Origin: a virus
Lineage: Duplodnaviria; Heunggongvirae; Uroviricota; Caudoviricetes
IMG/VR virus record: IMGVR_UViG_2531839455_000003
Length of the DNA stretch: 38,174 bases
Direction: 5' to 3' (one strand)
Both the position numbers and the translations under genes were made by a program. Below, one piece after another: positions 9,757 to 38,174 of this stretch. The notes beneath the pieces are model-generated. The model did not search any database. It saw only the letters and a program-made list of their open reading frames with translations, and was not told the origin of the DNA. Numbering within the stretch: position 1 is the first letter of the stretch; the number at the start of each line of letters is the position of its first letter.

Positions 9757-9782
9757 TTATCTAAAACCTCGGTTTACAGGAA
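9757..9782. other. gix/pix-like 26-bp inversion crossover site (right)
   Basis: TTATCTAAAACCTCGGTTTACAGGAA; one mismatch from the Mu gixL sequence as I recall it; lies beside the invertase 5' end. Confidence 0.8.
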
Positions 9783-10727
9783 ACGGTAAATCAGGCTTCT
9801 GGCGCATTACAGAAAAACCAGAACGGCGCAGATATTCCGGGAAAAGATACCTTCACCAAAAATATTGGGGCCTGCCGCGCATATAGCGCATGGCTGGATA
9901 TTGGTGGCGATAGTCAGGTCTGGACAACCGCGCAATTTATTTCGTGGCTGGAGAGTCAGGGAGCATTTAACCATCCTTACTGGATGTGCAAAGGCTCATG
10001 GGCTTATGCAAATAATAAGGTCATTACAGATACAGGTTGCGGAAATATTTGTCTTGCAGGTGCTGTGGTGGAAGTTATTGGCACTCGCGGCGCAATGACC
10101 ATACGCGTTACTACGCCGAGCACGTCCAGCGGTGGCGGAATTACTAACGCTCAATTCACTTATATTAATCATGGTGATGCTTATGCTCCTGGCTGGCGAC
10201 GAGACTACAACACGAAAAACCAGCAGCCTGCATTTGCTTTAGGGCAAACAGGAAGCAGGGTTGCAAATGATAAAGCTGTTGGCTGGAACTGGAATAGCGG
10301 TGTTTATGATGCAGATATCAGCGGTGCATCGACATTAATCCTCCACTTCAATATGAATGCGGGGAGTTGCCCTGCCGTACAGTTCCGTGTGAATTATAAG
10401 AACGGCGGTATTTTTTATCGTTCAGCACGTGATGGTTATGGATTTGAGGCTAACTGGTCAGAGTTTTACACCACAACCCGCAAACCCTCTGCGGGAGATG
10501 TTGGTGCATATACGCAGGCAGAATGTAACTCAAGGTTTATTACAGGTATTCGCCTTGGCGGTCTGTCATCTGTTCAGACATGGAATGGCCCCGGCTGGTC
10601 TGACAGGTCAGGTTATGTCGTTACGGGTTCAGTTAACGGAAACCGTGATGAATTAATTGATACAACTCAGGCAAGGCCAATTCAGTATTGCATTAATGGG
10701 ACGTGGTATAACGCGGGGAGTATTTAA
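9765..10727 (+). CDS. alternative tail-fibre C-terminal variable segment, promoterless and start-less; fused to the constant H N-terminus only after inversion
   Basis: Frame is open from inside the gix site ([15 protein letters not shown]...) to stop at 10725-10727. Shares the site-encoded LGLQETVN and the C-terminal INGTWYN motif with H. Confidence 0.75.
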   Translation, partial: NLGLQETVNQASGALQKNQNGADIPGKDTFTKNIGACRAYSAWLDIGGDSQVWTTAQFISWLESQGAFNHPYWMCKGSWAYANNKVITDTGCGNICLAGAVVEVIGTRGAMTIRVTTPSTSSGGGITNAQFTYINHGDAYAPGWRRDYNTKNQQPAFALGQTGSRVANDKAVGWNWNSGVYDADISGASTLILHFNMNAGSCPAVQFRVNYKNGGIFYRSARDGYGFEANWSEFYTTTRKPSAGDVGAYTQAECNSRFITGIRLGGLSSVQTWNGPGWSDRSGYVVTGSVNGNRDELIDTTQARPIQYCINGTWYNAGSI

Positions 10728-10729
10728 CG

Positions 10730-11263
10730 ATGATGCACTTAAAAAACATTACTGCTGGCAACCCTAAAACAAAAGAGCAATACCAGCTAACAAAGCAATT
10801 TAACATCAAATGGCTTTATTCAGATGATGGAAAAAACTGGTATGAGGAACAAAAGAATTTCCAGCCAGACACTTTGAAAATGGTCTATGGCCATAACGGC
10901 GTTATTATTTGTATTGAAAAGGATGTTTCAGCAATTAATCCGGAAGGCGCAAGCGTCGTTGAATTACCTGATATTACAGCAAATCGCCGTGCTGACATTT
11001 CGGGTAAATGGATGTTCAAAGATGGCGTAGTGGTAAAGCGAACTTATACCGAGGAAGAGCAGAGGCAGCAGGCGGAAAATGAAAAGCAAAGCCTGCTACA
11101 GCTCGTCAGGGATAAAACCCAGCTATGGGACTCACAGCTACGGCTGGGCATCATTTCCGACGAGAATAAACAAAAATTAACAGAGTGGATGTTCTTTGCG
11201 CAGAAAGTCGAATCTACAGACACTTCCAGCCTGCCAGTAACGTTTCCCGAACAACCTGAATGA
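10730..11263 (+). CDS. tail-fibre assembly protein (alternative copy, Tfa/gpG-like)
   Basis: 177 aa; N-terminus MMHLKNITAGNPKTKEQYQLTK... parallels the other tfa copy; follows the alternative fibre segment. Confidence 0.85.
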   Translation: MMHLKNITAGNPKTKEQYQLTKQFNIKWLYSDDGKNWYEEQKNFQPDTLKMVYGHNGVIICIEKDVSAINPEGASVVELPDITANRRADISGKWMFKDGVVVKRTYTEEEQRQQAENEKQSLLQLVRDKTQLWDSQLRLGIISDENKQKLTEWMFFAQKVESTDTSSLPVTFPEQPE

Positions 11264-11266
11264 GAC

Positions 11267-11290
11267 AAGGCCCGATAGCGGGCCTTAATT
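11267..11290. terminator. bidirectional hairpin between the convergent tfa genes
   Basis: AAGGCCCG-ATAG-CGGGCCTT followed by AATTTTTATT. Confidence 0.5.
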
Positions 11291-11291
11291 T

Positions 11292-11819
11292 TTATTCAGG
11301 CTTTTGTGGCCATTCAGGATTTGCCGTATCCACACGGTTGACCAGAACACTGTAGCGTTCCCATGACTCCAGTCGTGCGCGTTCCTCATCCGTCGCCATA
11401 TTCAGCCTGACAGCGCGTTCCAGCGGCTGGATGACTGATTCAGCTTCGGAAAGCAATGCGGCCTTTTGTGATTCGGCCTGTTGTTGCTGTTCGTCAGCCG
11501 TATAAATCCGTTTAACCACAGCTCCGTCCTTAAACATCCACTTTCCTGAATCATCAGCGCGGCGGTTGGCTGTTATATCGGGAACCTCAACGACGCTAAA
11601 ACCTTCAGGGTTAAGCGTGGAGGCATCTTTAGTGATGGCGACAATAATATTATTTGCATCGTAAACAATCTTTATTGTGTCTGGCTGAAAGTTTTTCACT
11701 TCCTCATACCAGTTTTTTCCGTCCTCAGAGTAAAGCCAGATAACTCCGTGTTTCTTTGTTAACTCATACTGTTCCAGTGTTTTAGCGTTACCCGCTTTTA
11801 TGTTCTTTAAGTGCATCAT
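11292..11819 (-). CDS. G: tail-fibre assembly protein (currently expressed copy, gpG-like)
   Basis: 175 aa, [22 protein letters not shown]...; immediately downstream of H on the same strand. Confidence 0.88.
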
Positions 11820-11820
11820 A

Positions 11821-13983
11821 TTAAACGCTCGCTACATTATACCAGGTGCCATTTATATACTTTTGAACGGGTCTGTAATAAACGCCCGCTATATTATCGG
11901 CAGAGTTGGAGCCTGTATCCTGAACATTAATACCAGACAATACATGACCTGACGGGCACTGGAAATTCCATGTTTGCCAGTTGTTCACTCCATAATATTG
12001 CTGTGAACCAAGTCGAACATCTTTCACATATCTGGAATCAAAATTGCCATAATTGCCGGGAATAACTTGCGCACCGCAAAGCCAGTTCCCGTTATTATCC
12101 ATGTACGCCTGACCATCGGTACCATTGGCTGTCCTTGAGTTATTAATCATGTAGATGCCAAATTGCTTATTTCCCAGACCGCCAATCATAAATTTTCGGT
12201 CGGCATGGTCCTGACGGAGCAAGGCCTGGGCGCTATCAGTGTTAACTATATTTTTCCCAAAGATAGCGTTGTTATCGCGCATCTGAATCCACATACCATT
12301 ACCGCTGTTAATAGCAAAACGGTCTGAAAGTGTTTCTCCTGAAACATTAAGGCCACGCCCCATCGAAACAGCGCCAGTAGCGTTATTAATCCATAATGGC
12401 CTTAATCCGTTATAAGTCCCCATGTTGTCACCGGAGTTTGTCAACATGAAGTATGTATTTGAACCATCATTACGAATAAAGAATCCGTAATTACCATAAG
12501 CAATACGTAGGCCGTTTGCTGATTTTGATATGACTTCGCCATTTACAATGGCATTGACAAGAACATACAAAGCATCCCATTTAAGATTCATCAGGTCTTT
12601 TGTTGTGGTGCTTTGTTTGCTTCTCCATTTGAAATATTCATTGCCGTTGTCGCCTGTTTCAAACCACATGTATGAATCAGTGTCACCATCGGCATCATTT
12701 TTAAATCCAATCTTTGCCCAGTCAGTATTTCGAATCCAGGCAAGGATTGAGTCATTTTCAAAAGTAAGCCCACCGGACAAGGTATCGCCATTTTTTTGCA
12801 CGGCGTTACCAGCCCTGTTTACCGTTTCCTGTAAACCGAGGTATTCGATAACAGCGGCAACGGTCGATTTCGCAAGAATATCCCGCCCGACTTCTGTCAG
12901 GGTTGCCAGACTGGCAACATCATTCCCCGTAAAATACGGAAACCTGTCTGCTGCAGTAGCAAGCCCGGCCAGCGCCGTCAGGGTGGCATCTTTCGGTTGC
13001 TTACCCGCAAGCGCGTTAGTCATGGTGGTCGCAAAATTCGGGTCGTTGCCCAGCGCCGCCGCCAGCTCGTTCAGCGTGTTCAGTGCGTCAGGTGAAGAGT
13101 CTACAAGTGCGGCAATCGCGGCCATAACGAAAGCCGTGCTTGCGATTTGGGTATTATTCGTTCCCTGTTGTGCAGTTGGTGTTGTTGGCGTTCCGGTCAG
13201 TGCCGGGCTGTTTAATGGGGCTTTCTTGTTCGTTTCATCCATTACCGCCTTAACCGCTTTTGGTGTCGCTGCCAGCGTTTCAGACGTGCTGTTGGTTGCA
13301 CTGCTGAGCTGGACTATCCCTTTTCGTGCCGTCGTGGCGTCCTGAGCGGTATATTTTCCGTTAGCCAGGTCATACGCGGCCTTAACCGCTTTCGGCGTTG
13401 CAGCCAGCGTTTCAGAATCGCTGTTAGTGGCGCTACTGAGTTGAACAAAGCCTTTTGCGGTCAGCGAGGCATCCGGGTGACGTCGTGACTGTTCATGCTC
13501 TTTCAGTTTGTCATCCACGTAATCCACTGTGGCCATCACCATGGTGTTATCCACGGTAAGCGCCACGGTGGCAGTGCTGGATACGGTCAGAATGGTGCGA
13601 AATGTTTGTGCACGTCCTGACCCTTCGGCAACGGTTGGCTTGTAACTTTCGGCAGTATTGCCTACTGCGATTAAATCGCCGTGCTCATCAAACACACCAA
13701 TTTCCCGGATCCAGAATCCGCCCGTTTCTGGAGGAATAACCAGCTCCGCAATAATGCGGTTCTGATGTGTTGCGTCCAGGATGACGCGATTAACAGTGTG
13801 TCGCCACACCTCATGCACCAGACGGGTCTGCTTACTGTCTGGTGTGGGCAACGTGCCGCCACCGTCGCCCACGGCCATATGAGTCAGGCGGACAGGCTTA
13901 CCATCTGGCGCGGCTGCCTGAGCTAATTTTTTTGCACCCGTATCGGTGATAACGGTTTTAAATTTTCGTGTTGTGGTACTCAT
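11821..13983 (-). CDS. H: tail fibre protein gpH (constant N-terminus plus current variable C-terminus)
   Basis: 720 aa; N-terminus [31 protein letters not shown] is P2 H-like; contains the left gix-like site at 12826-12851 in frame. Confidence 0.92.
12826..12851. other. gix/pix-like 26-bp inversion crossover site (left), inside H
   Basis: TTCCTGTAAACCGAGGTATTCGATAA, inverted relative to the site at 9757-9782. Confidence 0.8.
13247..13446 (-). repeat. intragenic tandem direct repeat in H (two ~68-bp copies, 132-bp period)
   Basis: Copies at 13247-13314 and 13379-13446 encode the repeated peptide [22 protein letters not shown]. Confidence 0.7.
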
Positions 13984-22395: not shown

Positions 22396-24147
22396 ATGAT
22401 TCAGGACGCTTTTGTGCGCCAGCGTGCGCGGCAACTTTACTGGCAGGGTTATCCGCCCGCAGAAATATCACGTCTGATGGGAATAAACCCGAACACGATT
22501 TATGCGTGGAAAAAACGCGACCAGTGGGATGAAACGCCACCCGTGCAGCGTGTCACGCAGTCCATCGATGCGCGCCTCATCCAGCTCACTGAAAAACAGA
22601 ATAAAACAGGTGGTGACTTCAAGGAAATAGACCTGCTGACCCGGCAGCTTAAAAAACTGCATGATGGCCAGCCGGATGCGACGGCCACAGGAAAGAAAGG
22701 CCGGGCGAAAAAACTCAAAAATCATTTCACGCCGGAACAGATTGCCGCACTGCGGGAAAAAATCATCAGCAGGCTGGAGTGGCATCAGCGGGGCTGGTTT
22801 GACTCCCTGACCCTTTGCAGGGAAGCCGGGATACGTAACAGGATGATCCTGAAATCCCGACAGATTGGGGCGACCTGGTATTTTGCACAGGAAGCTCTGC
22901 TGATGGCGCTGCGTGACGATGTGGCGCAACCTTACCAGCGTAACCAGATTTTTTTGTCTGCGTCGCGTCGTCAGGCGTTCCAGTTTAAAAGCATTATTCA
23001 GAAGGCCGCGGCTGAAGTTGATGTGGAGCTGAAAGGGGGCGATAAAATCATCCTCTCCAACGGCGCAGAGCTGCATTTTCTCGGCACTTCTGCTGCGTCG
23101 GCACAGTCCTATACGGGCAATTTTTATTTTGATGAATTTTTCTGGGTCAGTCGCTTTGCTGAACTGCGCAAGGTGGCTGGCGCTATGGCAACCCTCAGCG
23201 GACTGCGGCGCACATACTTCTCCACGCCATCCACCGAAACGCACGAGGCATACGCCTACTGGAACGGCGACCGCTGGAACGAGAAAAAGGCCTCGCATAA
23301 ACGCCAGCGTTTTTCTGTGGACTGGAAAACGCTGCATAACGGGCTTATCTGCCCTGACCGGACGTGGCGGCAAATTGTCACGCTGGAAGATGTGGTTAAT
23401 CACGGCTGGAAACACACCGATATTGATGAAATTCGTGATGAAAACACCGAAGACGAGTTCCTCAATCTCTATATGTGTGAGTTTGTTCGCGAAGGGGAAT
23501 CGGCATTTAACCTGAATATCCTGATTGGCTGCGGTGTTGACGGATACGACGACTGGAAAGACTGGAAACCTTTTGCTCCCCGCCCGATGGGGAATCGTCC
23601 GGTATGGATTGGGTATGACGCAAACGGCAGCAGTGGCAACGGCGACAGCGGCGCGGTGTCCGTGGTGGTTCCTCCGGCTGTTCCTGGTGGCCGTTTTCGA
23701 ACGGTGGAGACGCGACGCGTTCAGGGGCTGGAGTTTGAAGAACAGGCCAGAGTCATTGAAGAGTTCACGTGTCGCTACAACGTGGAACACATCGGCATTG
23801 ATGTGACGGGCGGAAACGGGGAGGCTGTTTATCAGATAGTGAAGCGGTTTTTCCCTGCTGCTATTCCGTACACCTTCACGCTGTCATCCAAACGGTCGCT
23901 GGTACTGAAAATGCTGCAAATAATGCGTGCCGGACGGTGGGAATACGATCGCGCCGAACGCGAGCTGGTCGCGGCCTTTAACGCCGTGCGTAAGGTGAAA
24001 ACACCGGGCGGCTTTATCACTTACGAAACGGACCGCGCGAGGGGGATCAGCCACGGCGACCTTGCGTGGGCAACCATGCTTGCTGTCATTAACGAACCAA
24101 TTGGCGGCGAAGGAGAAAACGAGCGTTTCACGGTTATGGAGTTCTGA
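22396..24147 (+). CDS. P: terminase large (ATPase) subunit gpP
   Basis: 583 aa; N-terminal HTH-like region followed by the ATPase/nuclease body. Confidence 0.93.
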   Translation: MIQDAFVRQRARQLYWQGYPPAEISRLMGINPNTIYAWKKRDQWDETPPVQRVTQSIDARLIQLTEKQNKTGGDFKEIDLLTRQLKKLHDGQPDATATGKKGRAKKLKNHFTPEQIAALREKIISRLEWHQRGWFDSLTLCREAGIRNRMILKSRQIGATWYFAQEALLMALRDDVAQPYQRNQIFLSASRRQAFQFKSIIQKAAAEVDVELKGGDKIILSNGAELHFLGTSAASAQSYTGNFYFDEFFWVSRFAELRKVAGAMATLSGLRRTYFSTPSTETHEAYAYWNGDRWNEKKASHKRQRFSVDWKTLHNGLICPDRTWRQIVTLEDVVNHGWKHTDIDEIRDENTEDEFLNLYMCEFVREGESAFNLNILIGCGVDGYDDWKDWKPFAPRPMGNRPVWIGYDANGSSGNGDSGAVSVVVPPAVPGGRFRTVETRRVQGLEFEEQARVIEEFTCRYNVEHIGIDVTGGNGEAVYQIVKRFFPAAIPYTFTLSSKRSLVLKMLQIMRAGRWEYDRAERELVAAFNAVRKVKTPGGFITYETDRARGISHGDLAWATMLAVINEPIGGEGENERFTVMEF

Positions 24148-25193
24148 TGAGCAGAAAAAATAAAAAAGTGCGCATGAGTTCACGCATTGATCTCGCTGAT
24201 GCGCTCAGGAAAGAATCATCGCTCAGTGCATTCACATTTGATGGTCCTTATCGCCTGACCGGGCATGACCTGCTGGACAATATGTACTGTGCTGATAACG
24301 GGCGGTGGTATGAAACCCCGGTGGACTGGTACGGTCTGGCAAGAGCAGCCCGGCAAACGTCCTGGCATCAGTCTGCGCTTTACTTTAAGCGCAATGTATT
24401 ACTCGGTTGCTACATCCCGCACCCGCTGCTTTCCCGGCAGGATTTCTCGGCGCTGGCGCTGGACTGGTTTGTGTTCGGTAACGCATTCCTTGAGCTTCGA
24501 AGCAATATGCTCGGCGAACCGCTTAAATTACGGCACGCACTGGCGAAATACATGCGACGCGGAAGCGATCTTGAATCATGGTGGTATGTGCAGGATGGCA
24601 AGGACGCGTTCCAGTTTCGCCCTGGCAAAGTGTGCCACCTGATGAATCCGGACATTAACCAGGAAATTTACGGCATGCCGGAATATCTTGGCGCATTACT
24701 CTCGGCCAGCCTGTCTCATTCGGCGGACATGTTCAGAAAACTGTATTACGACAATGGATCCCACGCCGGGTGCATCATCTACATCGGTGCAGCGCAGGTG
24801 AACCGCGAAAGCATGGACTCCCTGAAAGAAACGTTACAGGGTGCGCGTGGTGGTGGTGCGTTTAAAAACGTGCTCATCCATGCGCCCAACGGGGGCAAAG
24901 AGGGGGTGCAAATTTTGCCGTTCCAGCAGATCACAGCAAAAGATGAGTTCATGAATGTTAAGGCGGCATCCCGTGATGATGTGCTGGCTGCGCACCGCGT
25001 TCCGCCGCAACTGATGGGGGCGATGCCGGGCGAAAAAAGTGCGTTTGGTGATGTGGAGAAGGCCGCGCGGGTTTACGCAATTAACGAGCTGATGCCCGTC
25101 ATGGAGGCCATGAAGCACATCAATGACTGGCTTGGCGAAGAGGTGATCCGCTTTAACCCTTACGCACTGTTAGACACCCAGCCCACATCCTGA
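24147..25193 (+). CDS. Q: portal (capsid portal vertex) protein gpQ
   Basis: 348 aa; overlapping stop/start with P (ATGA). Confidence 0.93.
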   Translation: MSRKNKKVRMSSRIDLADALRKESSLSAFTFDGPYRLTGHDLLDNMYCADNGRWYETPVDWYGLARAARQTSWHQSALYFKRNVLLGCYIPHPLLSRQDFSALALDWFVFGNAFLELRSNMLGEPLKLRHALAKYMRRGSDLESWWYVQDGKDAFQFRPGKVCHLMNPDINQEIYGMPEYLGALLSASLSHSADMFRKLYYDNGSHAGCIIYIGAAQVNRESMDSLKETLQGARGGGAFKNVLIHAPNGGKEGVQILPFQQITAKDEFMNVKAASRDDVLAAHRVPPQLMGAMPGEKSAFGDVEKAARVYAINELMPVMEAMKHINDWLGEEVIRFNPYALLDTQPTS

Positions 25194-25617: not shown

Positions 25618-25654
25618 TTGTGCAAATTTGTGCACTATTGTGCATTTGTATAGT
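25618..25654 (+). promoter_or_regulatory. three helically phased TTGTGCA direct repeats with a candidate -10 (TATAGT) upstream of the cargo operon
   Basis: TTGTGCA at 25618, 25628 and 25638 (exact 10-bp spacing); TATAGT at 25649-25654; about 70 nt upstream of ATG 25724. Confidence 0.4.
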
Positions 25655-25723
25655 GAAAAAAATATAGCAGAAAGTATACTTAGCGCCTTGTGGGCTACGT
25701 TAACTTTGCAGGAACATTTGGAA

Positions 25724-27103
25724 ATGAAAAAAATCAATAAAGAAGATTCTAAAAGAACCTTTTTACGTGGATGGTTGCGATTTCTTCGTAGCGTTGAGAG
25801 AGCTAAGAAAAAAAAGCCTGCGCAAGAGAAAAATGGTAGTCTTCGTTTTTCCGATGAAACAACTCCTGTCCAAAACCAAGTCGCTACGTTCATTGAAAAT
25901 ATATCGATTATAAAAGAGTATGACTCATCAATTCTTCGTCGTGACGCAGAGAAGATATTAATACCTAAATATTTTGACTTATATGACAATCCAGAGAAAT
26001 CTCTGCTATTTATTAGTGCAGCCACAAAATTAATTGCAAGAGGTAAATGGAAATCATATATTTTTGATTACAAGAAAAACAAAAAACACTGTCTTGGTCT
26101 TGAGTGTCTATTAGGTGTTGCTCTTACAGCAGCAAGGCAAAGTAATATAAATTTCAAAGATACGATGATTCAGATTAATGGTATCTACCCTAAAGATGAA
26201 CAGTATCTTGAAATTATCAGGGATGTCGGGCTTGTAAAAGAGATTAGTAATGCTGCACCAGGTAAAGTTCTGGACTCTACTGAAGCATCGAAAAAAGCGA
26301 ATCCGAAGAAACGAATCTTCTCTGCTGATAGTATCGGAAAGGAGAATGCTTCTGCCTTTGCCCATGACAGAAAAAATGTCACTGCTGAAAAATTTACCGC
26401 ATACATAAACGAATGCTTAAATGATCATAATTTAAAACTTGTACATGAGGCAGAAAAGCATTTAACTTCCTGCATGGGGGAACTCCTTGATAATGCGGAG
26501 CGGCATTGTGGGTTAGAGCAACGCCCACGCTGGTATTTGAGAGGTTTTGTTAATAATAACGTACGAAACCCCATATGTGAGTTGGCTGTTTTCAATTTTG
26601 GGAAAACTATCAGCGAAACTTTTGATAATTTACCTGAGGATCATTTTTCATTAAGTCAACAAGTTAATCCATACATAAATAAGCATATTAAGAAAAAGGG
26701 TATGTTTAAGGAAGGATTAACAACAGTAGCGGCCTTGCAAGGGCGGGTGAGTTGTAAAAACGAGAAAGAAACTGACAGTTCTGGCACCGGAACAATTGAA
26801 TTATTGAAGTTATTTCAAGATATGCATGATAATCTTAAAAAAATGGGAAGAGATATTAAAGGTGGGATAAAAATGACTTTAATATCTGGTAGTACTCATA
26901 TTAACTTTGATGGATCATATAAATTAAAGCAAAGGTTGGTTAATGACGAGGAAAGTGACATTTTTACTTACCCTTTTAATGATGTAGGGCTTGAATCTGA
27001 ACCGGATCGCAACTATCTTAAGCGTATGAAGGATGCTCGATTTCCTGGAGTTATGATCAATATTCGTTTTCCTCTACCAGAAAACGCCACCCAGCGAACT
27101 TGA
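25724..27103 (+). CDS. cargo gene 1: predicted GHKL/Bergerat-fold ATPase-like protein (possible Ser/His-kinase-type), function unknown
   Basis: 459 aa from the first ATG; AT-rich. N-box-like motif GELLDNAERH (E-x3-N-A-x2-H), then a degenerate G1-like FNFGKT and a G2-like SSGTGTIELL glycine loop in the C-terminal half. Confidence 0.7.
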   Translation: MKKINKEDSKRTFLRGWLRFLRSVERAKKKKPAQEKNGSLRFSDETTPVQNQVATFIENISIIKEYDSSILRRDAEKILIPKYFDLYDNPEKSLLFISAATKLIARGKWKSYIFDYKKNKKHCLGLECLLGVALTAARQSNINFKDTMIQINGIYPKDEQYLEIIRDVGLVKEISNAAPGKVLDSTEASKKANPKKRIFSADSIGKENASAFAHDRKNVTAEKFTAYINECLNDHNLKLVHEAEKHLTSCMGELLDNAERHCGLEQRPRWYLRGFVNNNVRNPICELAVFNFGKTISETFDNLPEDHFSLSQQVNPYINKHIKKKGMFKEGLTTVAALQGRVSCKNEKETDSSGTGTIELLKLFQDMHDNLKKMGRDIKGGIKMTLISGSTHINFDGSYKLKQRLVNDEESDIFTYPFNDVGLESEPDRNYLKRMKDARFPGVMINIRFPLPENATQRT

Positions 27104-27113
27104 GGACAGGTAC

Positions 27114-27458
27114 ATGAAAATGGCTGACATCACCATAGATTTCAATAAGTTAGTAAAAGATAGTAACAAGAAACTTTTTGCTGGACGTTCTAATGGGCGC
27201 CAGGCCTATGATTACTTTAATATAGGGAAATTTTGCACAACCAGTAATGATAGATTATATCTATTGATCCCCAAGGGAATTGTTGTATCAAGCTCATACT
27301 TTCTAGGTATGCTTGAAACGGTTTTGCCGAAATTTTCTTCGCCTAGCGAATTTTATAGTCGCACTGTACTTGATGGTCGTGAATATAAAGAAGGTATGCT
27401 TTCTGAATTAGATAGAGCTGTAAGGAGAGGCTTACATAAAAATGTTCCCTTCTTTTAA
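27114..27458 (+). CDS. cargo gene 2: small cytoplasmic protein, possible STAS-like (anti-sigma-antagonist fold) partner
   Basis: 114 aa, 10 nt after the gene 1 stop (SD GGACAGG). Motif LYLLIPKGIVVSSSYFLGMLETV resembles the beta-strand plus DSSG serine loop of SpoIIAA/RsbV-type STAS domains; assigned by motif only. Confidence 0.6.
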   Translation: MKMADITIDFNKLVKDSNKKLFAGRSNGRQAYDYFNIGKFCTTSNDRLYLLIPKGIVVSSSYFLGMLETVLPKFSSPSEFYSRTVLDGREYKEGMLSELDRAVRRGLHKNVPFF

Positions 27459-28251
27459 AAATATTTTTCAAATCAAAATGACAGCGCTGTCTGTCATTTT
27501 TTTTATATTCCCCGCAGCTTGCTCTGTGACAGATTTTTCCAATAAAGAAAACATTGAATGTAATGAGTCACTTTATCCAAACACGCCTTTTTATATTTCC
27601 GATTCAGGACTTAGTGGTATATCATCACCGTTTTTGTTATCCGGAAACCCGAATGATGGCTTGATGTTTTGTGAAAAGGCAAACGACACCTTTCATAAGT
27701 TATCTCTGGCAAGGGATAACAAAAAAGATTTATTTGCTAATTATTTCAAAGATGTTCCAAATTCCTATGATATATATAATATTGTAAAGGTTCCGGAAAA
27801 TGGTCCAGAGTGGATTTCTATTGGCATCTCTTTATTTGCTTTAGTTTCATCCTTTGTTATTCCTTGTGTTCAACATAGAAAAGAACGTAAAGAAGCTATT
27901 AATGAAGGGTATTGGGTAAGAGAAGTAATTATGCCTAAAATTAATGGGTTGGCATTCGATGTTGTGCAAAGTTTTAAAAACTCCATGGCATTATCAGAAG
28001 AGGAGTTTCTTAGTGTATTCAGTAATACTCTTTTACCAAAACTAGGAGAGTTACGGGATTCATTATATTTGTTTAATAGTTTTCCAGAATTAAATGCAGA
28101 TATTGAAAATCTAGAAAGTATTTGTGACTCCTTGGAGGAAGAAGTTTCCAATCATATAGACTCGCCTAATGAAATAAGAATTTCTGATATATCAATGTTT
28201 CATTCCAAATTAATACAGAAATTAATTTTACTTCATAAGAAGATAGGTTGA
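27442..28251 (+). CDS. cargo gene 3: membrane protein (N-terminal signal/anchor plus internal TM helix), candidate effector
   Basis: 269 aa. Start overlaps the gene 2 end by 17 nt; SD AAGGAGAGG upstream. N-terminal hydrophobic segment MTALSVIFFIFPAAC, internal TM EWISIGISLFALVSSFVIPCV, acidic C-terminal domain. Confidence 0.65.
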   Translation: MFPSFKNIFQIKMTALSVIFFIFPAACSVTDFSNKENIECNESLYPNTPFYISDSGLSGISSPFLLSGNPNDGLMFCEKANDTFHKLSLARDNKKDLFANYFKDVPNSYDIYNIVKVPENGPEWISIGISLFALVSSFVIPCVQHRKERKEAINEGYWVREVIMPKINGLAFDVVQSFKNSMALSEEEFLSVFSNTLLPKLGELRDSLYLFNSFPELNADIENLESICDSLEEEVSNHIDSPNEIRISDISMFHSKLIQKLILLHKKIG

Positions 28252-28296
28252 TTTTCAAGGCCTCCTTATTCCTAGGGCGGCCTTAGCTCTATATTT

Positions 28297-31044
28297 CTAT
28301 CGTGTTCGATGCAATAAACTGATTTTTTTGCGAGCATGTTTAGTGGTTTCACTGATTCTCTGTGCGTGCTCTGCGTCGCGGATGGCGCGCAGCATGTCAG
28401 AAAGTACGGTAACGGGTGTTTTCATGGTGTTCTGGTCTTGCTGAAGTGTGGATGCCAGGCGTGCGGCGGCTTCAGGGTCTGATGCCTCTAGTTGTTCCAG
28501 ATAGCTGGCGACCGGGTTATGGCGGATCTCCGTGCTGCTTACGCCGTGATTACGACTCAGGCGTTGCCAGAGCTGCGTGATTCGGCTGTCCGGGCGGGTA
28601 TCCTGTTTGCGTACAATTTCAAATCCCTGCGGTGCAATGATGCTGCCGCCAACGTACAGACTGCCGCCCCGTAACAGGTGCTGCATCTGCTGTTCACCGA
28701 TATGCAGGCCGAGAGATTCAGCAGACTCCCGCCATTCTTTAGCGAGTAACTCGTGGTTATCAGGCAAAGGCTGTGGCTGTTTGCGGCTCTGTGTCCAGTT
28801 CTGCATTTCATCACTGCTGTTTTTTGCCTGTTTGTCACGCAGCGAACGCATCAGTGCCCGGCGTTCGTGCCGTTTCAGTGAGCGCATCCATTCATTCACG
28901 TCAACGCCTTCAGGAAGCCGCGGCCACGGTGCTGGCCGTTCTTCCGGCTGTTCTGTCCCGTTGTTGTCCGTTTCCTGTACACGGGGACAGTTATTGCCAC
29001 GAGTCCAAGGGGCGGCAGGGCCGCCCTGAAGGTCAAAACCATTTTCGCGGGCGCTGTCTTCCGTTTCCGGTTTACGTCTTACCAGTTTCCAGTTATCCGG
29101 ATGCGTGCACACACGGGAGGATTCCCCGATGAGTGGTGACCAGATCCCGTAAATCTGTACGCTCTGTTCGCCGTAATCATTCAGCTCATCTGCGAGGTCG
29201 TAGGCGGTGCGAATCAGGTAGTCTTTGCGTGGAACAAGTACGCCGCCCTGTTTTTCAATGTAGGTGGCAAAACACCCGGCATCGGCGGCAGCGAGTACCG
29301 CATCCATTGCGTCATCTTTCAGTCGTTGCGGGCCTTCCGGGTTGCGTGCCATCTGGCTGGCAAGGCGGCGCAGTTCACGCCACACCTGACGGGAGGGGAT
29401 GCCAAAGAACTGGAACTGGCGGACCCGATGAAGGCGCGCCCAGCCGATGGCGCGCTCCACACTCTCGGCCATTGATTTTCCGGTTTCGTGGTCAACGCGT
29501 GGCTTGCCCGTTTTCGGGTCGATGCCATCCACGGCGCGGCTGTCCAGGTTCTTTCCGATGTAGGTCGCGATATAGCTGGTTGGTGTGCCTTTTGAGCCGT
29601 CGACATACTCCGCCTTAAAGCGCGGAGTAATATCATTGCCCAGCTCGTGGCGGTCTTCCTGAATGGCAATATCGCGGGTGATGGCCACGATGCTGTCGAT
29701 TTCTTCCGGATGAGCAAAGACCATCATATGCCAGTGCACGGTGCCGTCATGGTGAGGCTCCACCGTGCGGATGCCATACCAGCGAAGACCGTCGCGGTTC
29801 AGTTTTTTGCGGACCGCCGCAAAAAACGTGTTAACCAGGTAATCGCTGGAGTCGCGCATGGTGGCCCCGTTCCATTTGGGATTCGGATGACCGTTCTCTG
29901 TTGTGGCGTGGTATTTTGACGGGCAGGTGACAGTCAGAAACACCGCTTTGTCGCCACGGGCTTCGGCCAGAAGTTCCAGCCCCTTCATGGTGGCCATCAT
30001 TTCTGCCTTACGGTGAACCGGGTTACTTACTCCCGCGTAATACACCGTCTCGAGATCAATCGTGAACCCGTCTTCGTTTTCCAGCATGAAACTTTTCAGG
30101 AAATCGCGTGTTTTCTCGCGCTGTGCGCGAAACTCGCTTAACGCGTCCTGGCTCAAATAGGGCGATGTTTTTCTGGAAACCAGACAGGCGGCGCGGAGTT
30201 GTTCTTCTCTCCACTCGCAACGTAACAGCCACAGTTTGCGTTTCCACCATTCCGCACAGGTCAGGCGAAGGATTGCGCCCGGCAGCAGCTCCGTGTCCGG
30301 TTCGTTCCTCCGGTCTTTATCTGTTGTCAGTGCGTCATAATGTGGAGGCATGATGTGCAGGTGTAACGCCATGCGGGCCAGCATCTGATACGCCTTCAGC
30401 GTTACATCCATGGTCAGTTCGCCATCGGTCGCGCCAAAGCCATCGCAGAGTTTTTCGAAGGTGCTGCTGAACATCGCCGCCGTCATGGTGGCCAGCGTCT
30501 GTATCTGGTGTTTGTTGAGCTGCGGCAGGTAAAGCAAATCGTCCAGGCGTTCGCGTCCGGCAAGGGAGCGATAACCCGGTGTCAGCCAGTGTCCGTCAGT
30601 GCGATCCAGACGTTCGAATATTTTGCGCAGGGTTCCGCGTGCATAGCGTTCCGCCTGCCAGCTCTTTTTGCCTTTCCGGCGATCGGCTTCCTGTTTTTTG
30701 CGCAGGAAGGAGAGGTGGCGAATAAGCGGATCGCGCAGATAGGACGGCAGCAGGCGCAGCGAGGCCATGGCTTCATCCACCGCGCCGCGTGCCTGTTTTC
30801 TGGCGTCTCCTGCCAGTGCGATGGTTTTGTCCTGTTTTTCCTGTGCGTCCAGGCTTTTATTAATCAGGTTGCCCAGCGGCGTGGCGGAGAACGCCGCATC
30901 AGCCATTTTCTGGCGGCGCTCGTTCTCTGCCCGGTAGGCATCCAGCCAGGAGGAAAGCACGGATTCAGGAGCGGGGATCCCCGTTCCTTCACGCCCTACT
31001 GCGTGGCGCGGTTGTTGCCAGTCCCTGATGTACTCTGTCGTCAT
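28297..31044 (-). CDS. A: replication initiation endonuclease gpA (rolling-circle, HUH-type)
   Basis: 915 aa with HHDGTVHWHMMVF (HUH-like) and a downstream Tyr-containing region; longer than P2 A, so an extension or different start is possible. Confidence 0.88.
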   Translation of the reverse strand: MTTEYIRDWQQPRHAVGREGTGIPAPESVLSSWLDAYRAENERRQKMADAAFSATPLGNLINKSLDAQEKQDKTIALAGDARKQARGAVDEAMASLRLLPSYLRDPLIRHLSFLRKKQEADRRKGKKSWQAERYARGTLRKIFERLDRTDGHWLTPGYRSLAGRERLDDLLYLPQLNKHQIQTLATMTAAMFSSTFEKLCDGFGATDGELTMDVTLKAYQMLARMALHLHIMPPHYDALTTDKDRRNEPDTELLPGAILRLTCAEWWKRKLWLLRCEWREEQLRAACLVSRKTSPYLSQDALSEFRAQREKTRDFLKSFMLENEDGFTIDLETVYYAGVSNPVHRKAEMMATMKGLELLAEARGDKAVFLTVTCPSKYHATTENGHPNPKWNGATMRDSSDYLVNTFFAAVRKKLNRDGLRWYGIRTVEPHHDGTVHWHMMVFAHPEEIDSIVAITRDIAIQEDRHELGNDITPRFKAEYVDGSKGTPTSYIATYIGKNLDSRAVDGIDPKTGKPRVDHETGKSMAESVERAIGWARLHRVRQFQFFGIPSRQVWRELRRLASQMARNPEGPQRLKDDAMDAVLAAADAGCFATYIEKQGGVLVPRKDYLIRTAYDLADELNDYGEQSVQIYGIWSPLIGESSRVCTHPDNWKLVRRKPETEDSARENGFDLQGGPAAPWTRGNNCPRVQETDNNGTEQPEERPAPWPRLPEGVDVNEWMRSLKRHERRALMRSLRDKQAKNSSDEMQNWTQSRKQPQPLPDNHELLAKEWRESAESLGLHIGEQQMQHLLRGGSLYVGGSIIAPQGFEIVRKQDTRPDSRITQLWQRLSRNHGVSSTEIRHNPVASYLEQLEASDPEAAARLASTLQQDQNTMKTPVTVLSDMLRAIRDAEHAQRISETTKHARKKISLLHRTR

Positions 31045-32090: not shown

Positions 32091-32921
32091 TTACTTCACC
32101 GGAACAAACGGAACAGCGGTGTTGCTGGTCATGTATTGCGGCAGCGTGCCGTTCCATTTGTTGATTGCTTCCAGCTCCATAACGCCGGGATTCTGGCGCA
32201 GAGCTTCACCGCGTAAACGAATGGCGTCGGCTTCAGCCTGGGCTTTTGTGCGAATGGCATCAGCCTGTCCGGCAGCTTCTGCGCGCAACATGTTGGCTTC
32301 TGCTTCGCGTTGCTTGACTTCCTGTTCGCGTTGCAGGGTTTTCTGGTTTGCCGTGACTTTGGCATTAATGCTGTCGATAACGGTTGACGGGTACTCCGGC
32401 TTACCCACATATGAGAGGCTCATTACCTGAATACCGATAGGTGTCATTTCCTCCTGAATGTCTTTAAGAGCTGCATCCAGTAGTTCAGATTTCCCGCCGT
32501 CGATAAATTTGTCGGTGGTCATTTTGCTGGCCAGTCGGTTGAGTGCATCGGCGATCTTCTGGCGCAGGTCAGTGTCGGTAATGTCATCCACGCCTTTGCG
32601 GTAGGTCTGAAACACTGTAGTAACTTTGGATGGATCAACCTTGTAGGCCACACCGATGTGATAGCCGATGGTTGTGCCGTCACTCATCTGGAAGCTGAAC
32701 GGCTCATCGTAGGTCTTCATTTGTTTGAAGGTCGGGAAGATGTAAACCTCGGTATTCCAGCCAGTCCAGTAGCGGCCAACGCCAACCACTTCGCCGACGC
32801 CTTTGTCGTCGCCCAGTTTGTTGACTTTGATGCCCACATTACCTGGCTCAACGCGATCGCAACCAACCAGCAGGATGGCGGCAAAAAGCGGGATAATCTG
32901 AAAGAGTTTGAATTTCTTCAT
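32091..32921 (-). CDS. SPFH/band-7 (stomatin/prohibitin-like) lipoprotein
   Basis: 276 aa; lipoprotein signal MKKFKLFQIIPLFAAILLVGC; band-7-like core; C-terminal Ala/Glu/Gln-rich coiled-coil (REAEANMLRAEAAGQADAIRTKAQAEADAIRLRGEA). Confidence 0.82.
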   Translation of the reverse strand: MKKFKLFQIIPLFAAILLVGCDRVEPGNVGIKVNKLGDDKGVGEVVGVGRYWTGWNTEVYIFPTFKQMKTYDEPFSFQMSDGTTIGYHIGVAYKVDPSKVTTVFQTYRKGVDDITDTDLRQKIADALNRLASKMTTDKFIDGGKSELLDAALKDIQEEMTPIGIQVMSLSYVGKPEYPSTVIDSINAKVTANQKTLQREQEVKQREAEANMLRAEAAGQADAIRTKAQAEADAIRLRGEALRQNPGVMELEAINKWNGTLPQYMTSNTAVPFVPVK

Positions 32922-33897: not shown

Positions 33898-34308
33898 CTA
33901 TGCGTTAAATACGGCACGTTGCGTGCCATCAATGAATGCGGCCTGAGTGCGTTCTATCAGGCGGAGATTTGTCAGAACTTCTGACTCTCTTACGGGGTAA
34001 GGGGTAATCAGGTATTTGTCCTGCAATTCGGCGATAATGATGTATTGCTGTAGCTCCGAGCCAATAATATGAATAAGGTGTCCAATGTCAGATAAATTCA
34101 GTCTGGTGGTTGGTTGTGTTTTGAGAACCGTTAGTTCAGCATCCTGTTTTTCGATGATTTCGGCTGCTTCGGCGGTTACTCTTGTTATCATCATGGCCGT
34201 GGTGGCAGGCCCAATCATTCCTGCATTTGTTGCATCCTGAATGGCTCTGTTTGCGGTCTCCGATATATTTTTTAGCGCAGTTACAATGCCTTTTTCTTTT
34301 GCGTTCAT
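33898..34308 (-). CDS. hypothetical early protein
   Basis: 136-aa ORF in the co-directional early gene string. Confidence 0.55.
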   Translation of the reverse strand: MNAKEKGIVTALKNISETANRAIQDATNAGMIGPATTAMMITRVTAEAAEIIEKQDAELTVLKTQPTTRLNLSDIGHLIHIIGSELQQYIIIAELQDKYLITPYPVRESEVLTNLRLIERTQAAFIDGTQRAVFNA

Positions 34309-35717: not shown

Positions 35718-36140
35718 TTATGCCGGGCTGCTCCCGGCATCTTCTAGCTGCCATAATGTCTCGTCACCTGATAGAGCAAAACGAAATGAGTGAAGTATAT
35801 CCTCCCGAGAGAAGCTCACGGCTACAGCTGCGGGAAAGTCAAATATAATCCCACCTTCATTTTTAAAACGATTACGCAATTGATAGGCTATCGGTTTGAT
35901 TTGTGCAGGAAGAGTATCTATATCTCTTCCATTGACAACAGAATCTTTGTTTTCAAGTACTGATTTAGCGATTAGATATAGATGCCAGTAACTGGTTACA
36001 ATTGTTACTCCTGTGATGTGTCGTAAATTAATTGCAATTCGTCCGTTATTATGTTTTTCCGCAAGGTATTTCAGGTTATCAATTAATGGTTGGTCATTTT
36101 TTGAAATAGTTATTGTGAAATCTGGCGTGTTTGTTTTCAT
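35718..36140 (-). CDS. AT-rich hypothetical protein (140 aa from ATG 36140)
   Basis: Start trimmed from the long track ORF (35718..36383) to ATG 36140 to remove the overlap with the upstream gene; AT-rich composition differs from the neighbours. Confidence 0.5.
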   Translation of the reverse strand: MKTNTPDFTITISKNDQPLIDNLKYLAEKHNNGRIAINLRHITGVTIVTSYWHLYLIAKSVLENKDSVVNGRDIDTLPAQIKPIAYQLRNRFKNEGGIIFDFPAAVAVSFSREDILHSFRFALSGDETLWQLEDAGSSPA

Positions 36141-36144
36141 ACGA

Positions 36145-36666
36145 TTAGTTGCCTCTGTTGTTTCTGAGTTGGTCCAGTTTTGAGCTTCTGCCTGTATAAA
36201 CTCGCTTACCGTTAATGGTCTGGCAGTCTTCTTTATTAGCTGGAGAGAACTTCCTTTTCTGGCGGTCATACGTCCAGTAACTTTTCCAGTTGTGCCATTC
36301 TGGGGGCTCGTGCTCTGGTAGCTCATCAGCCAACTTGTCCCACTCTTTGGCGTTAAACCACCATACTCCGTCTGAGTTTTCATCTTCCGGGTTTGTGCGC
36401 GTCTTGTGTCCCGGCATTTGACCGCGATGAATGGCTACGCGCAGTGCAGATTTTGTTAGCCCAATATATGCCGCGCCTTTTTCCAGAGAGCAAAGCCCGG
36501 CGATCGGACCATCCAGCCGTAAAGTCGCTCCTTTTTTGTAGGAACGCTTTTTCTTGTTTTCTTCGTGTTCGTCGTCGTTGGCGGCATCAATGGATCCGCT
36601 GAGTGCGTCACTTTCCTGAAGTGGTTGGTGGTCAGATAACTCTTTATCGGCAATGAAGTCCCGCAT
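36145..36666 (-). CDS. first early-operon protein, possible HTH DNA-binding (Cox/excisionase-like role unproven)
   Basis: 173 aa; ATG 36666 with SD AGAGGA; divergent from the repressor gene; contains LTKSALRVAIHRGQMPGHK. Confidence 0.55.
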   Translation of the reverse strand: MRDFIADKELSDHQPLQESDALSGSIDAANDDEHEENKKKRSYKKGATLRLDGPIAGLCSLEKGAAYIGLTKSALRVAIHRGQMPGHKTRTNPEDENSDGVWWFNAKEWDKLADELPEHEPPEWHNWKSYWTYDRQKRKFSPANKEDCQTINGKRVYTGRSSKLDQLRNNRGN

Positions 36667-37112: not shown

Positions 37113-37181
37113 CTCTACACATTGAGCGAATTACATATCGCAAGGAGTGTTTAGTTAATTTATCCGTTGGAGGGGCTAATC

Positions 37182-38174
37182 ATGTCGATTAAGCAACTCA
37201 AAGACGGACGTTATCAGGTCGATGTCAGACCGCAGGGGGCGGAAGGAAAGCGGATTCGAAAAATCTTTGCCCTGAAATCAAAGGCTCAGGAGTTTGAGAA
37301 GTATGTGTTACAGAACTTTCATGACAAGCCATGGCAGGCTAAGCCAGCTGATCAGCGGCGATTATCAGAGCTGCTTGATGCGTGGTGGATGCTTGATGGG
37401 CGTAATCAGGCTTACGGGGATAGCTACAGGGTTAGGCTAGGGAAGGTTGTTCGTGAAATGGGAGATCCTCGCGCCAGTCAGATGACGCGAAAATTTATGC
37501 TTGAATATCGGTCAGAGAAATTACAGGCCGGATTAATGCCGTCCAGTATTAATCGTGACTTATGCGTACTGTCTACCATGTTCACGGTGCTGATTGAAGC
37601 TGAGGTCTTTCACAACGCGAACCCTGTACGCGGTATACGAAAACTGAAAGTTCAGAACACAGAGATGGCCTTTCTTTCTGATGATGAGATTGAACGGCTT
37701 CTTGAACGACTGGAGGGTGATGCGCGTCGTGTTGCCATTCTGTGTCTTTCTACTGGTGCCCGATGGAGTGAAGCATCGGAACTACGTGGAGAGCATATCG
37801 TTGGCAACCGGGTGACGTTCTTTAACACCAAAAACGGAAAATCCCGTTCGGTTCCTGTGGCGGATTCGGTCGTGCCTCTGATTAAAACCCGTCGAACGGG
37901 GTTATTGTATCAGGTTGATTATCTGAAGTTCCGGGAGATTCTTCAGGAGGTGAAACCGGATTTGCCGAAGGGGCAGGCTACGCATGTCATGCGTCATACA
38001 TTTGCCACACACTTTATGATGAATGGCGGAAATATTGTTACGTTGCAACGAATCCTGGGGCACGCAACGATTCAGCAAACAATGACGTACGCTCATTTTT
38101 CGCCGGACTTTTTACAGGACGCGATCAACTTTAATCCGCTGGCTGAAAGTGTCCATAAACTGTCCATCGATTAG
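37182..38174 (+). CDS. int: tyrosine recombinase / phage integrase
   Basis: C-terminal catalytic region HVMRHTFATHFMMNGGNIVTLQRILGHATIQQTMTYAHF; ATG 37182 with SD GGAGGGG (6-nt spacer); stop TAG at the last three bases of the window. Confidence 0.93.
   Translation: MSIKQLKDGRYQVDVRPQGAEGKRIRKIFALKSKAQEFEKYVLQNFHDKPWQAKPADQRRLSELLDAWWMLDGRNQAYGDSYRVRLGKVVREMGDPRASQMTRKFMLEYRSEKLQAGLMPSSINRDLCVLSTMFTVLIEAEVFHNANPVRGIRKLKVQNTEMAFLSDDEIERLLERLEGDARRVAILCLSTGARWSEASELRGEHIVGNRVTFFNTKNGKSRSVPVADSVVPLIKTRRTGLLYQVDYLKFREILQEVKPDLPKGQATHVMRHTFATHFMMNGGNIVTLQRILGHATIQQTMTYAHFSPDFLQDAINFNPLAESVHKLSID

Follow-up and report, generated by a model that had tools for sequence, protein, structure and literature searches.

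What is a low-GC insert of three tightly packed genes doing between the portal gene and the gpA replication gene of a P2-like prophage? We addressed this question for the Escherichia coli prophage in the IMG/VR virus record IMGVR_UViG_2531839455_000003. The window, by which we mean the whole stretch of DNA analysed, is 38,174 nucleotides (nt) long. An initial annotation had read the first two genes of the insert as a GHKL kinase and its STAS-type substrate, a pair resembling a partner-switching module that might act as a phage-sensing switch. That idea fits the CapK/CapS (CapKS) and VapKSC systems, the mechanisms of which were published in 2026 (Chambers et al., EMBO J 2026, PMC13373217). Our analysis goes beyond the annotation on two points: a third gene belongs to the unit, and a STAS-like domain lies within the gene 1 protein. 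By analogy, the trio is probably a membrane-effector variant of the CapK/CapS and VapKSC anti-phage switches. The three genes are the following.

25724-27103, + strand: gene 1 (K component), 459 amino acids (aa), WP_000723541; predicted basic N-terminal helix, STAS-like domain and SpoIIAB/RsbW-like GHKL domain
27114-27458, + strand: gene 2 (S component), 114 aa, WP_000763711; predicted DUF4325-type STAS-like protein
27442-28251, + strand: gene 3, 269 aa, WP_001548207; presumed effector

The start of gene 3 overlaps the end of gene 2 by 17 nt. RefSeq calls genes 1 and 2 on the same strand and at the same positions as the initial annotation, apart from a gene 2 start at 27120, and all three proteins are hypothetical in RefSeq. 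The cassette has a GC (guanine plus cytosine) content of 35%, compared with 54-57% for its flanks, a feature that the initial annotation had missed.

Gene order and distribution of the trio

In each of the 55 loci with sequence beyond gene 1, gene 1 is followed by gene 2, and gene 2 by a gene for a protein with a transmembrane (TM) helix and a helical region of ~150 residues. These loci comprise 29 genome loci and 26 viral contigs, some identical copies being counted. In IMG/VR, 27 viral contigs had a gene 1 relative, and 26 of these carried a full-length gene 1 with the trio. The hosts include Enterobacteriaceae (E. coli among them), Vibrio, Aeromonas, Roseateles, Pseudoalteromonas, Alphaproteobacteria and a Bacteroidetes metagenome-assembled genome (MAG). 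Most of the loci are P2-like prophage hotspots, other prophages or defence islands, and the neighbouring genes elsewhere encode type I restriction-modification (R-M), AbiE, Old/Gabija-like, PifA and KAP NTPase proteins, as well as integrases. Of 5,426 complete E. coli genomes, 23 contain the entire cassette. Among deposited phage genomes only the conserved left (cos-side) flank was matched, and tblastn with gene 1 gave no match; seven remote relatives were found on plasmids.

No phosphatase or sigma factor family recurred among the 129 neighbouring open reading frames (ORFs), for which the 25 top families were listed, and none was present in the annotated neighbourhoods. Since neither accompanies the trio, its anatomy is not that of classical partner switching. 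The partner-switching-like pair of the initial annotation is retained here as a kinase-like protein with a STAS-like partner, but these are two members of what is actually a trio, without the phosphatase or sigma factor of the classical modules.

A gene set of the same three-part architecture has been described in the Francisella prophage KIRK, where genes for a 293-aa hypothetical protein, a 112-aa DUF4325 protein and a 125-aa TM protein are adjacent to one another, beside cI and int (PMC7924643). Two of the loci carry features of their own. At a Vibrio parahaemolyticus locus (L002, 4065-7019), an AAA_15/Old-Gabija-like gene beside the trio appears to be split by a DDE transposase, and a type I R-M system lies just upstream. 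A 3.1 kb contig (L007, DEQA01000158.1) that encodes a gene 1 protein 100% identical to that of the window was binned in a 'Planococcaceae bacterium' MAG; it is probably a mis-binned E. coli prophage fragment.

Earlier record of the cassette

Rousset and coworkers defined the interval between portal and gpA in P2-like phages as a defence hotspot (Rousset et al. 2022, Cell Host Microbe, PMC9122126). The cassette of the window is their system 19, 'HATPase_c | DUF4325' (Table S5B of PMC9122126); four of four sequence strings, two from gene 1 and two from gene 2, were found in that row, and the gene 3 protein of system 19 differs from that of the window at two residues. They recorded 155 occurrences in their E. 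coli survey, labelled protein 2 as DUF4325 by means of HHpred, and reported a Phobius signal peptide and one TM helix in protein 3 (PMC9122126). The domain labels are therefore not new, having appeared in this 2022 table. The entry consists of HHpred labels only, without a mechanism, the STAS domain in protein 1 or a link to K-S switches.

A related entry from P4 satellites, system 69, carries the same label 'HATPase_c | DUF4325' (Table S1B of PMC9122126). Its protein 1 resembles gene 1 in that the N-terminus is basic and both a STAS (Pfam STAS, E 0.003) and a GHKL domain are present, and the two proteins can be aligned collinearly. It differs in its canonical G1 motif (YDLGVG), its remote relationship and its location in another hotspot. 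We also considered whether the cassette is the system that Rousset and coworkers validated as three genes without domains protecting against P1, and rejected this identity because the trio has no PADLOC match and its sequences are not in Tables S2A/S2B.

Gene 1

An alignment-based AlphaFold model of gene 1 (predicted local distance difference test score, pLDDT, 81.8; predicted template modelling score, pTM, 0.81) indicates an architecture of a basic N-terminal helix, a STAS-like domain and a GHKL domain. The domains and motifs are placed as follows.

25724-25858, + strand: basic N-terminal helix, MKKINKEDSKRTFLRGWLRFLRSVERAKKKK..., gene 1 residues 1-45; helix 6-29 in the model
25901-26338, + strand: STAS-like domain, residues ~60-205
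26366-27088, + strand: Bergerat-fold (GHKL) domain, residues ~215-455
26477-26506, + strand: N-box GELLDNAERH; E253, N257 and H261 invariant (45/45)
26591-26608, + strand: G1-like motif FNFGKT; N291 where GHKL proteins have the adenine-binding Asp
26729-26758, + strand: lid motif AALQGRVSCK, family-specific; Q339 and S343 invariant, K345 in 41/45
26777-26794, + strand: G2 loop SSGTGT; G354 and G356 invariant, directly before helix 356-373 in the model

The three gene 1 motifs on which the initial annotation had based its assignment (GELLDNAERH, FNFGKT and SSGTGT) translate exactly as quoted, as does the SSS of IVVSSSYFLGML in gene 2. The best fold matches of the gene 1 model were SpoIIAB, RsbW and UsfX, and STAS proteins were matched too. 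The C-terminal part is modelled as an alpha/beta sandwich with an ATP lid, as in GHKL proteins. Helix 241-262 carries the N-box, strand 284-292 ends in G1 and G2 just precedes helix 356-373; these are the positions that a Bergerat fold requires. On the strength of the model, the Bergerat fold is confirmed and kinase chemistry is not. Structure prediction, one of the routes by which the annotation could have been refuted, bore out its first half, the fold of gene 1; for gene 2 it yielded a model lacking a significant STAS match.

We aligned 45 gene 1 homologues with identities down to 28%. E253, N257, H261, N291, G293, G354 and G356 are invariant among them, and the motif E(L/I)LDNAERH is kept in distant alphaproteobacterial and Bacteroidetes relatives. 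The N-box follows the same E-x3-N-A-x2-H pattern as the SEAVTNAIIHG of SpoIIAB (PDB sequence); it aligns with E46/N50/H54 of SpoIIAB and E156/N160/H164 of VapK. The G2 sequence SGTGT corresponds to SGMGF in SpoIIAB and RGLGL in VapK. In SpoIIAB-type kinases the N-box Glu is the catalytic base and the Asn is a Mg ligand. The lid, measured from N291 to G354, is 63 residues long in gene 1 versus 26 in SpoIIAB (D81-G107), and every distant gene 1 relative has ALQ(G/D)xV(S/T) within it.

The initial annotation had called the G1 motif degenerate, and this description extends to the whole family: N291 stands in place of the Asp, and the position is Asn or Ser throughout. Where the GHKL superfamily has DxGxG, gene 1 reads NFGKT. 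N291 aligns with D190 in the DFGVG of VapK and with the Asp in the YDLGVG of the P4-type protein. The G1 Asp of GHKL proteins contacts the adenine amino group, and in Hsp90 and GyrB an Asp-to-Asn change at this position abolishes the binding of ATP.

The first 45 residues of the 45 homologues have a median of 14 Lys or Arg and three Asp or Glu, and this basic N-terminus might bind nucleic acid or membrane. When the GHKL part of gene 1 was aligned with SpoIIAB by hhalign, the N-box alone was in register and the remainder was misaligned; hhalign of gene 2 with the gene 1 STAS domain found no relationship. The STAS domain of gene 1 was considered as a phospho-acceptor and rejected as improbable, since its canonical site carries no conserved Ser.

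Gene 2

Gene 2 was modelled with a pLDDT of 89.8 and has its secondary structure elements in the STAS order. A candidate phospho-acceptor site lies in the loop that the initial annotation had singled out.

27288-27296, + strand: S59-S60-S61 of IVVSSSYFLGML, at the N-terminus of helix 60-67

The homologue search returned 41 clusters, and S59, S60, S61, Y62 and G65 are invariant in 37 of 37 gene 2 homologues. A profile search of 1.8 billion representatives added 121 remote relatives, mostly of ~110 residues, with the common motifs F-x-G-R-x-N-G and (I/V)(S/T/N)-S-S-F-F-L-G. Across 122 remote relatives S61 is conserved in at least 90%.

Thirteen of the 122 profile relatives match Pfam DUF4325 ("STAS-like domain"), the best at 3.7e-8, and no other family recurs. 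The ten strongest relatives have no DUF4325 match. One of the remote relatives, P0195 (362 aa), has Pfam DUF4325 at residues 88-156 and the gene 2 profile match at 258-331, so that DUF4325 also occurs in tandem; this protein has a weak ADD-type zinc-finger match as well. Because the closest relatives lack a match, and because the match in one long protein is to a second repeat, we regard the bridge from gene 2 to DUF4325 as real but remote. In a comparison of the gene 2 profile with PDB sequences the top match was the STAS protein TM1081, which was not significant; S61 fell on the DS serine of TM1081. The assignment of gene 2 to STAS or DUF4325 in the initial annotation is supported by a remote homology chain (the 13 DUF4325 matches, a match to VapS at E 2.6e-4 described below and the label given by Rousset and coworkers), not by structure.

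The gene has two in-frame ATGs, at 27114 and at 27120, and the RefSeq start at the latter gives a 112-aa protein. M3 is invariant in the gene 2 alignment and many homologues begin at its equivalent; the short form may be the real product.

Gene 3

The predicted layout of gene 3 is a signal or lipoprotein peptide, a variable periplasmic segment, a TM helix at residues 124-143 and a conserved cytoplasmic helical domain. C27 is nearly invariant in the enterobacterial set, and W124, W158, V162 and P165 are invariant among the homologues. Identity among ten enterobacterial homologues is 20-45% in the periplasmic segment, compared with 56-70% in the TM and cytoplasmic part. The alphaproteobacterial, Bacteroidetes and several other versions have a short N-terminus, the TM helix and the helical domain, with no periplasmic segment. 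Since these remote versions dispense with that segment, the conserved core of gene 3 is the cytoplasmic part. In family scans the PIN domain was absent from gene 3.

Comparison with CapKS, VapKSC and the anti-sigma kinases

CapK is a kinase with helix-turn-helix (HTH), STAS and GHKL domains, and is always followed by CapS, which joins a STAS domain to a winged helix-turn-helix (wHTH). Single-stranded DNA (ssDNA) activates CapK, the conserved helix-2 Ser of CapS is phosphorylated, and the repressor is released. The VapKSC operon encodes VapK (STAS-GHKL), VapS (a 116-aa STAS antitoxin with acceptor S48) and the PIN toxin VapC; phosphorylation of the conserved Ser of VapS by VapK frees VapC, and the system guards against phage Bas42. 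It functions with no dedicated phosphatase reported. In the characterised K-S relatives the kinase is the sensor, and such modules react to general stress in the form of DNA damage (all PMC13373217). The coupling of vapC genes to DUF4325 genes had already been remarked in a 2017 survey of PIN domains, in the PIN.4 VapC group (PMC5499597).

The trio has the gene order of VapKSC, namely kinase, small STAS protein and effector; both occur in defence islands, and for neither is a dedicated phosphatase reported. Like VapK, gene 1 is a STAS domain fused to a GHKL domain resembling the anti-sigma kinases, both folds being found in the gene 1 model, and the two proteins share the N-box E-x3-N-x3-H and a C-terminal F-x-G-x-x-x-N-I. 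Like VapS, gene 2 is ~115 aa long, probably of the DUF4325 type, and has a conserved Ser/Thr at the start of helix 2. The differences are in the third gene, which encodes a signal-peptide, TM and helical protein and not a PIN nuclease, and in gene 1, which is 157 aa longer than VapK, with a basic N-terminal extension, a lid of ~63 residues and NFGKT in place of DFGVG at G1.

We compared the proteins directly, using the VapS and VapK sequences in the supplement of PMC13373217. VapS matched DUF4325 at E 2.7e-17 and VapK matched HATPase_c at 8.5e-5. The wide gene 2 profile matched VapS at E 2.6e-4 (as a single comparison) over nearly the full length and collinearly, with S60 on the acceptor S48 and a downstream KFS motif matched. 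Although not significant, the alignment of gene 1 with VapK is collinear: it pairs the two N-boxes, the G1 motifs (N291 with D190) and the C-terminal F-x-G-x-x-x-N-I motifs. The two proteins are also connected by a transitive chain, weak though collinear, from gene 1 to the P4-type protein (E 6e-6) and from that protein to VapK (BLASTP, 3.4e-5). Position 122 of gene 1, in a loop of the STAS domain, is Tyr, His, Phe or Trp in 35 of the 45 homologues, and a hand alignment, on which its register to VapK depends, places it near where F54 of VapK and W68 of CapK stack on ssDNA. A metagenome scan for VapK relatives returned one close copy.

The K architecture of CapK (STAS plus GHKL) is also that of gene 1, and in both cases the S gene is directly downstream. 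However, the N-terminus of gene 1 is a basic helix with no recognised HTH, and gene 2, unlike CapS, has no wHTH or DNA-binding domain; CapS represses a downstream operon, which the trio lacks. In fold, gene 1 is closest to SpoIIAB and RsbW, and like them it has a cognate STAS-like partner gene adjacent to it. It departs from them in the STAS domain fused to the kinase, in the replacement of the G1 Asp and in the failure of the Pfam HATPase and STAS models to match it. Unlike the SpoIIAB-SpoIIAA and RsbW-RsbV systems, the trio has neither a sigma factor nor a recurrent PP2C phosphatase, and it is found in a mobile-element context.

Proposed mechanism and alternatives

We lean towards the interpretation that the three genes form a self-contained module, moving horizontally, in which a K-S switch has a membrane output that aborts infection. 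The analysis shows the folds of gene 1, the conserved motifs, the fixed gene order and the setting in phages or defence islands; ATP use, phosphotransfer, an interaction of S with gene 3, the trigger, toxicity and an anti-phage effect are what we infer from the sister systems, in the following sequence. In the uninfected cell, S (gene 2) would keep the cytoplasmic domain of gene 3 inactive. A cue from infection would activate K (gene 1); the cue may be ssDNA, for which either the basic N-terminus or a site between the STAS and GHKL domains could be the point of binding. K would then phosphorylate S at S60 or S61, at the start of helix 2, and phosphorylated S would release gene 3. The freed gene 3 would damage or depolarise the membrane, and the infection would be aborted.

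Several results weigh against this interpretation. No Pfam, PADLOC or NCBIfam model matches any of the three proteins: gene 1 had no match in Pfam (HATPase and STAS models included) or NCBIfam at E up to 1 or in PADLOC-DB 2.0, gene 2 had none to the Pfam models STAS, STAS_2 and DUF4325 at E up to 1 or in PADLOC and NCBIfam, and the PADLOC match of gene 3 was at chance level (E 0.031). A PHROGs scan of the trio returned just families with no assigned function. The gene 1 family profile found nothing among PDB sequences at E up to 10, and its comparison with VapK was not significant (E 0.05-0.2). The gene 2 model had no significant match to STAS or any other fold in a Foldseek search of the PDB, and gene 3 had no match in the family libraries or PDB sequences and no recognisable toxin domain. 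Residue 122, the one aligned near F54 of VapK, is His in the gene 1 of the window. The cassette sequences are not in the tables of tested systems of Rousset and coworkers (PMC9122126). Finally, the G1 Asp position is Asn or Ser, and never Asp, in 25 of 25 relatives compared, including those from Alphaproteobacteria and Bacteroidetes. Because of this family-wide substitution, the kinase activity of gene 1 is not assured.

The G1 substitution makes a switch that works by binding only, or with a ligand other than ATP, the main rival. Gene 1 would then be a pseudokinase or would use a non-ATP ligand, sequestering gene 2 or gene 3 in the manner of an anti-sigma factor until displaced by a phage cue, with no phosphorylation involved. 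Besides the missing Asp, this is favoured by the second G1 glycine being Thr or Ser, by the long lid with its own invariant motif (ALQGxVSxK), by the STAS domain of gene 1, which could fill the partner site in cis, and by the lack of a recurring phosphatase nearby to reset a phospho-switch. Against it, VapKSC too works with no dedicated phosphatase. Neither the N-box Glu and Asn nor the G2 glycines ever vary, which is hard to explain without nucleotide chemistry, and the near-invariant Ser/Thr of gene 2 has its counterpart in the mapped acceptor of CapS and of VapS. We consider this alternative unlikely. Quite unlikely, in our judgement, is an arrangement in which gene 3 is the input and not the output, its rapidly evolving and in many cases lipid-anchored periplasmic segment detecting phage adsorption, injection or envelope damage and its cytoplasmic domain signalling to K and S; gene 3 could otherwise be a superinfection-exclusion lipoprotein tuned by K and S. 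Its topology is like that of single-pass sensors, a signal peptide or lipobox Cys is kept almost without exception in the enterobacterial set, and the periplasmic segment is far more variable than the TM and cytoplasmic part among the ten enterobacterial homologues. Against such a role, the alphaproteobacterial, Bacteroidetes and several other versions lack the periplasmic segment while the conserved core is cytoplasmic, and in the characterised relatives it is the kinase that senses. The two alternatives could be combined. If gene 1 were not an ATP kinase but used another nucleotide or ligand, or worked by binding alone, and if the periplasmic segment of gene 3 were a sensor facing the phage, the trio would amount to a phage detector that spans envelope and cytoplasm on a STAS/GHKL chassis, unlike the ssDNA-triggered VapKSC. 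The family-wide G1 Asn/Ser, the long lid with an invariant motif and the hypervariable, lipid-anchored segment that gene 3 has in its enterobacterial versions could form a basis for this combination, to which we give little credence.

A role outside defence is distinctly improbable. As an addiction or stress module, the trio might stabilise the prophage or react to DNA damage or induction, given that it has no PADLOC match, that K-S modules answer DNA damage as a general stress (PMC13373217), and that Rousset and coworkers cite non-defensive cargo of the P2 hotspot, namely partition systems and a toxin (PMC9122126). On the other side, outside P2 phages the trio is found repeatedly next to R-M, AbiE, Old/Gabija-like and PifA genes, and the sister system VapKSC protects against phage. 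A transcriptional regulator of a neighbouring operon, of the CapK/CapS type, would explain the shared K architecture and the S gene immediately downstream. It is nevertheless extremely improbable and we reject it: gene 2, at 114 aa, has no wHTH, and what lies downstream is no operon but gene 3 and then gpA in convergent orientation. Rather than being a swappable immune operon, the third gene varies together with the pair. The K-S switch with a membrane effector is the interpretation that we retain, at the strength given above.

Prophage setting and other features of the window

The complete serS gene at the start of the window indicates that the prophage, which is P2-like and from E. coli, adjoins serS. 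The landmarks of the prophage and the putative signals around the cassette are listed here.

1-1293: complete serS (seryl-tRNA synthetase), at the start of the window
22396-24147: large terminase
24147-25193: portal
25653-25680, + strand: weak sigma-70-like promoter match (9/12), 5' of gene 1 at the left edge of the low-GC insert
28272-28291, + strand: terminator-like hairpin, 3' of gene 3 and before gpA; from a consensus scan only
28297-31044, - strand: gpA replication endonuclease, convergent to the trio
37167-38174: integrase

The interval between portal and gpA is the cos-proximal hotspot of the P2-like prophage, filled here by the low-GC insert, and the DNA common to other P2-like phages stops near 25645. 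Sigma-70-like promoter matches are no more numerous in this region than in shuffled sequences.

Three other parts of the window drew our attention. In the tail fibre region (9757-13983), the main fibre and assembly genes occupy 11292-13983 on the - strand. Facing them are a gp37_C-like ORF for a second fibre tip (9984-10727) and a gene for tail-fibre assembly (10730-11263). The region, which has inverted repeats at 9757-9817/12791-12851 and 10730-10887/11662-11819, is possibly a host-range cassette of an alternative or invertible kind. The P2-like early region contains, at 32091-32921 (- strand), a gene for an SPFH/Band 7 protein (Pfam E 1.8e-30), which is unusual cargo there. ORFs at 33898-34308 and 35718-36383 (both - strand), which have no Pfam match, lie in a stretch of 42-45% GC near cox and int that may be a second accessory locus of the prophage.

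Significance

If the cassette is active, the kinase-STAS switch of CapKS and VapKSC would be a general plug-in controller, able to drive a membrane effector. An abundant system of the P2 hotspot, with 155 loci in the survey of Rousset and coworkers and a presence in 23 of 5,426 E. coli genomes, would then join the validated defence repertoire; it is a cassette that PADLOC, Pfam and NCBIfam still miss. The invariant Asn or Ser at G1, for its part, makes the family a natural experiment on what a Bergerat fold needs in order to bind a nucleotide.

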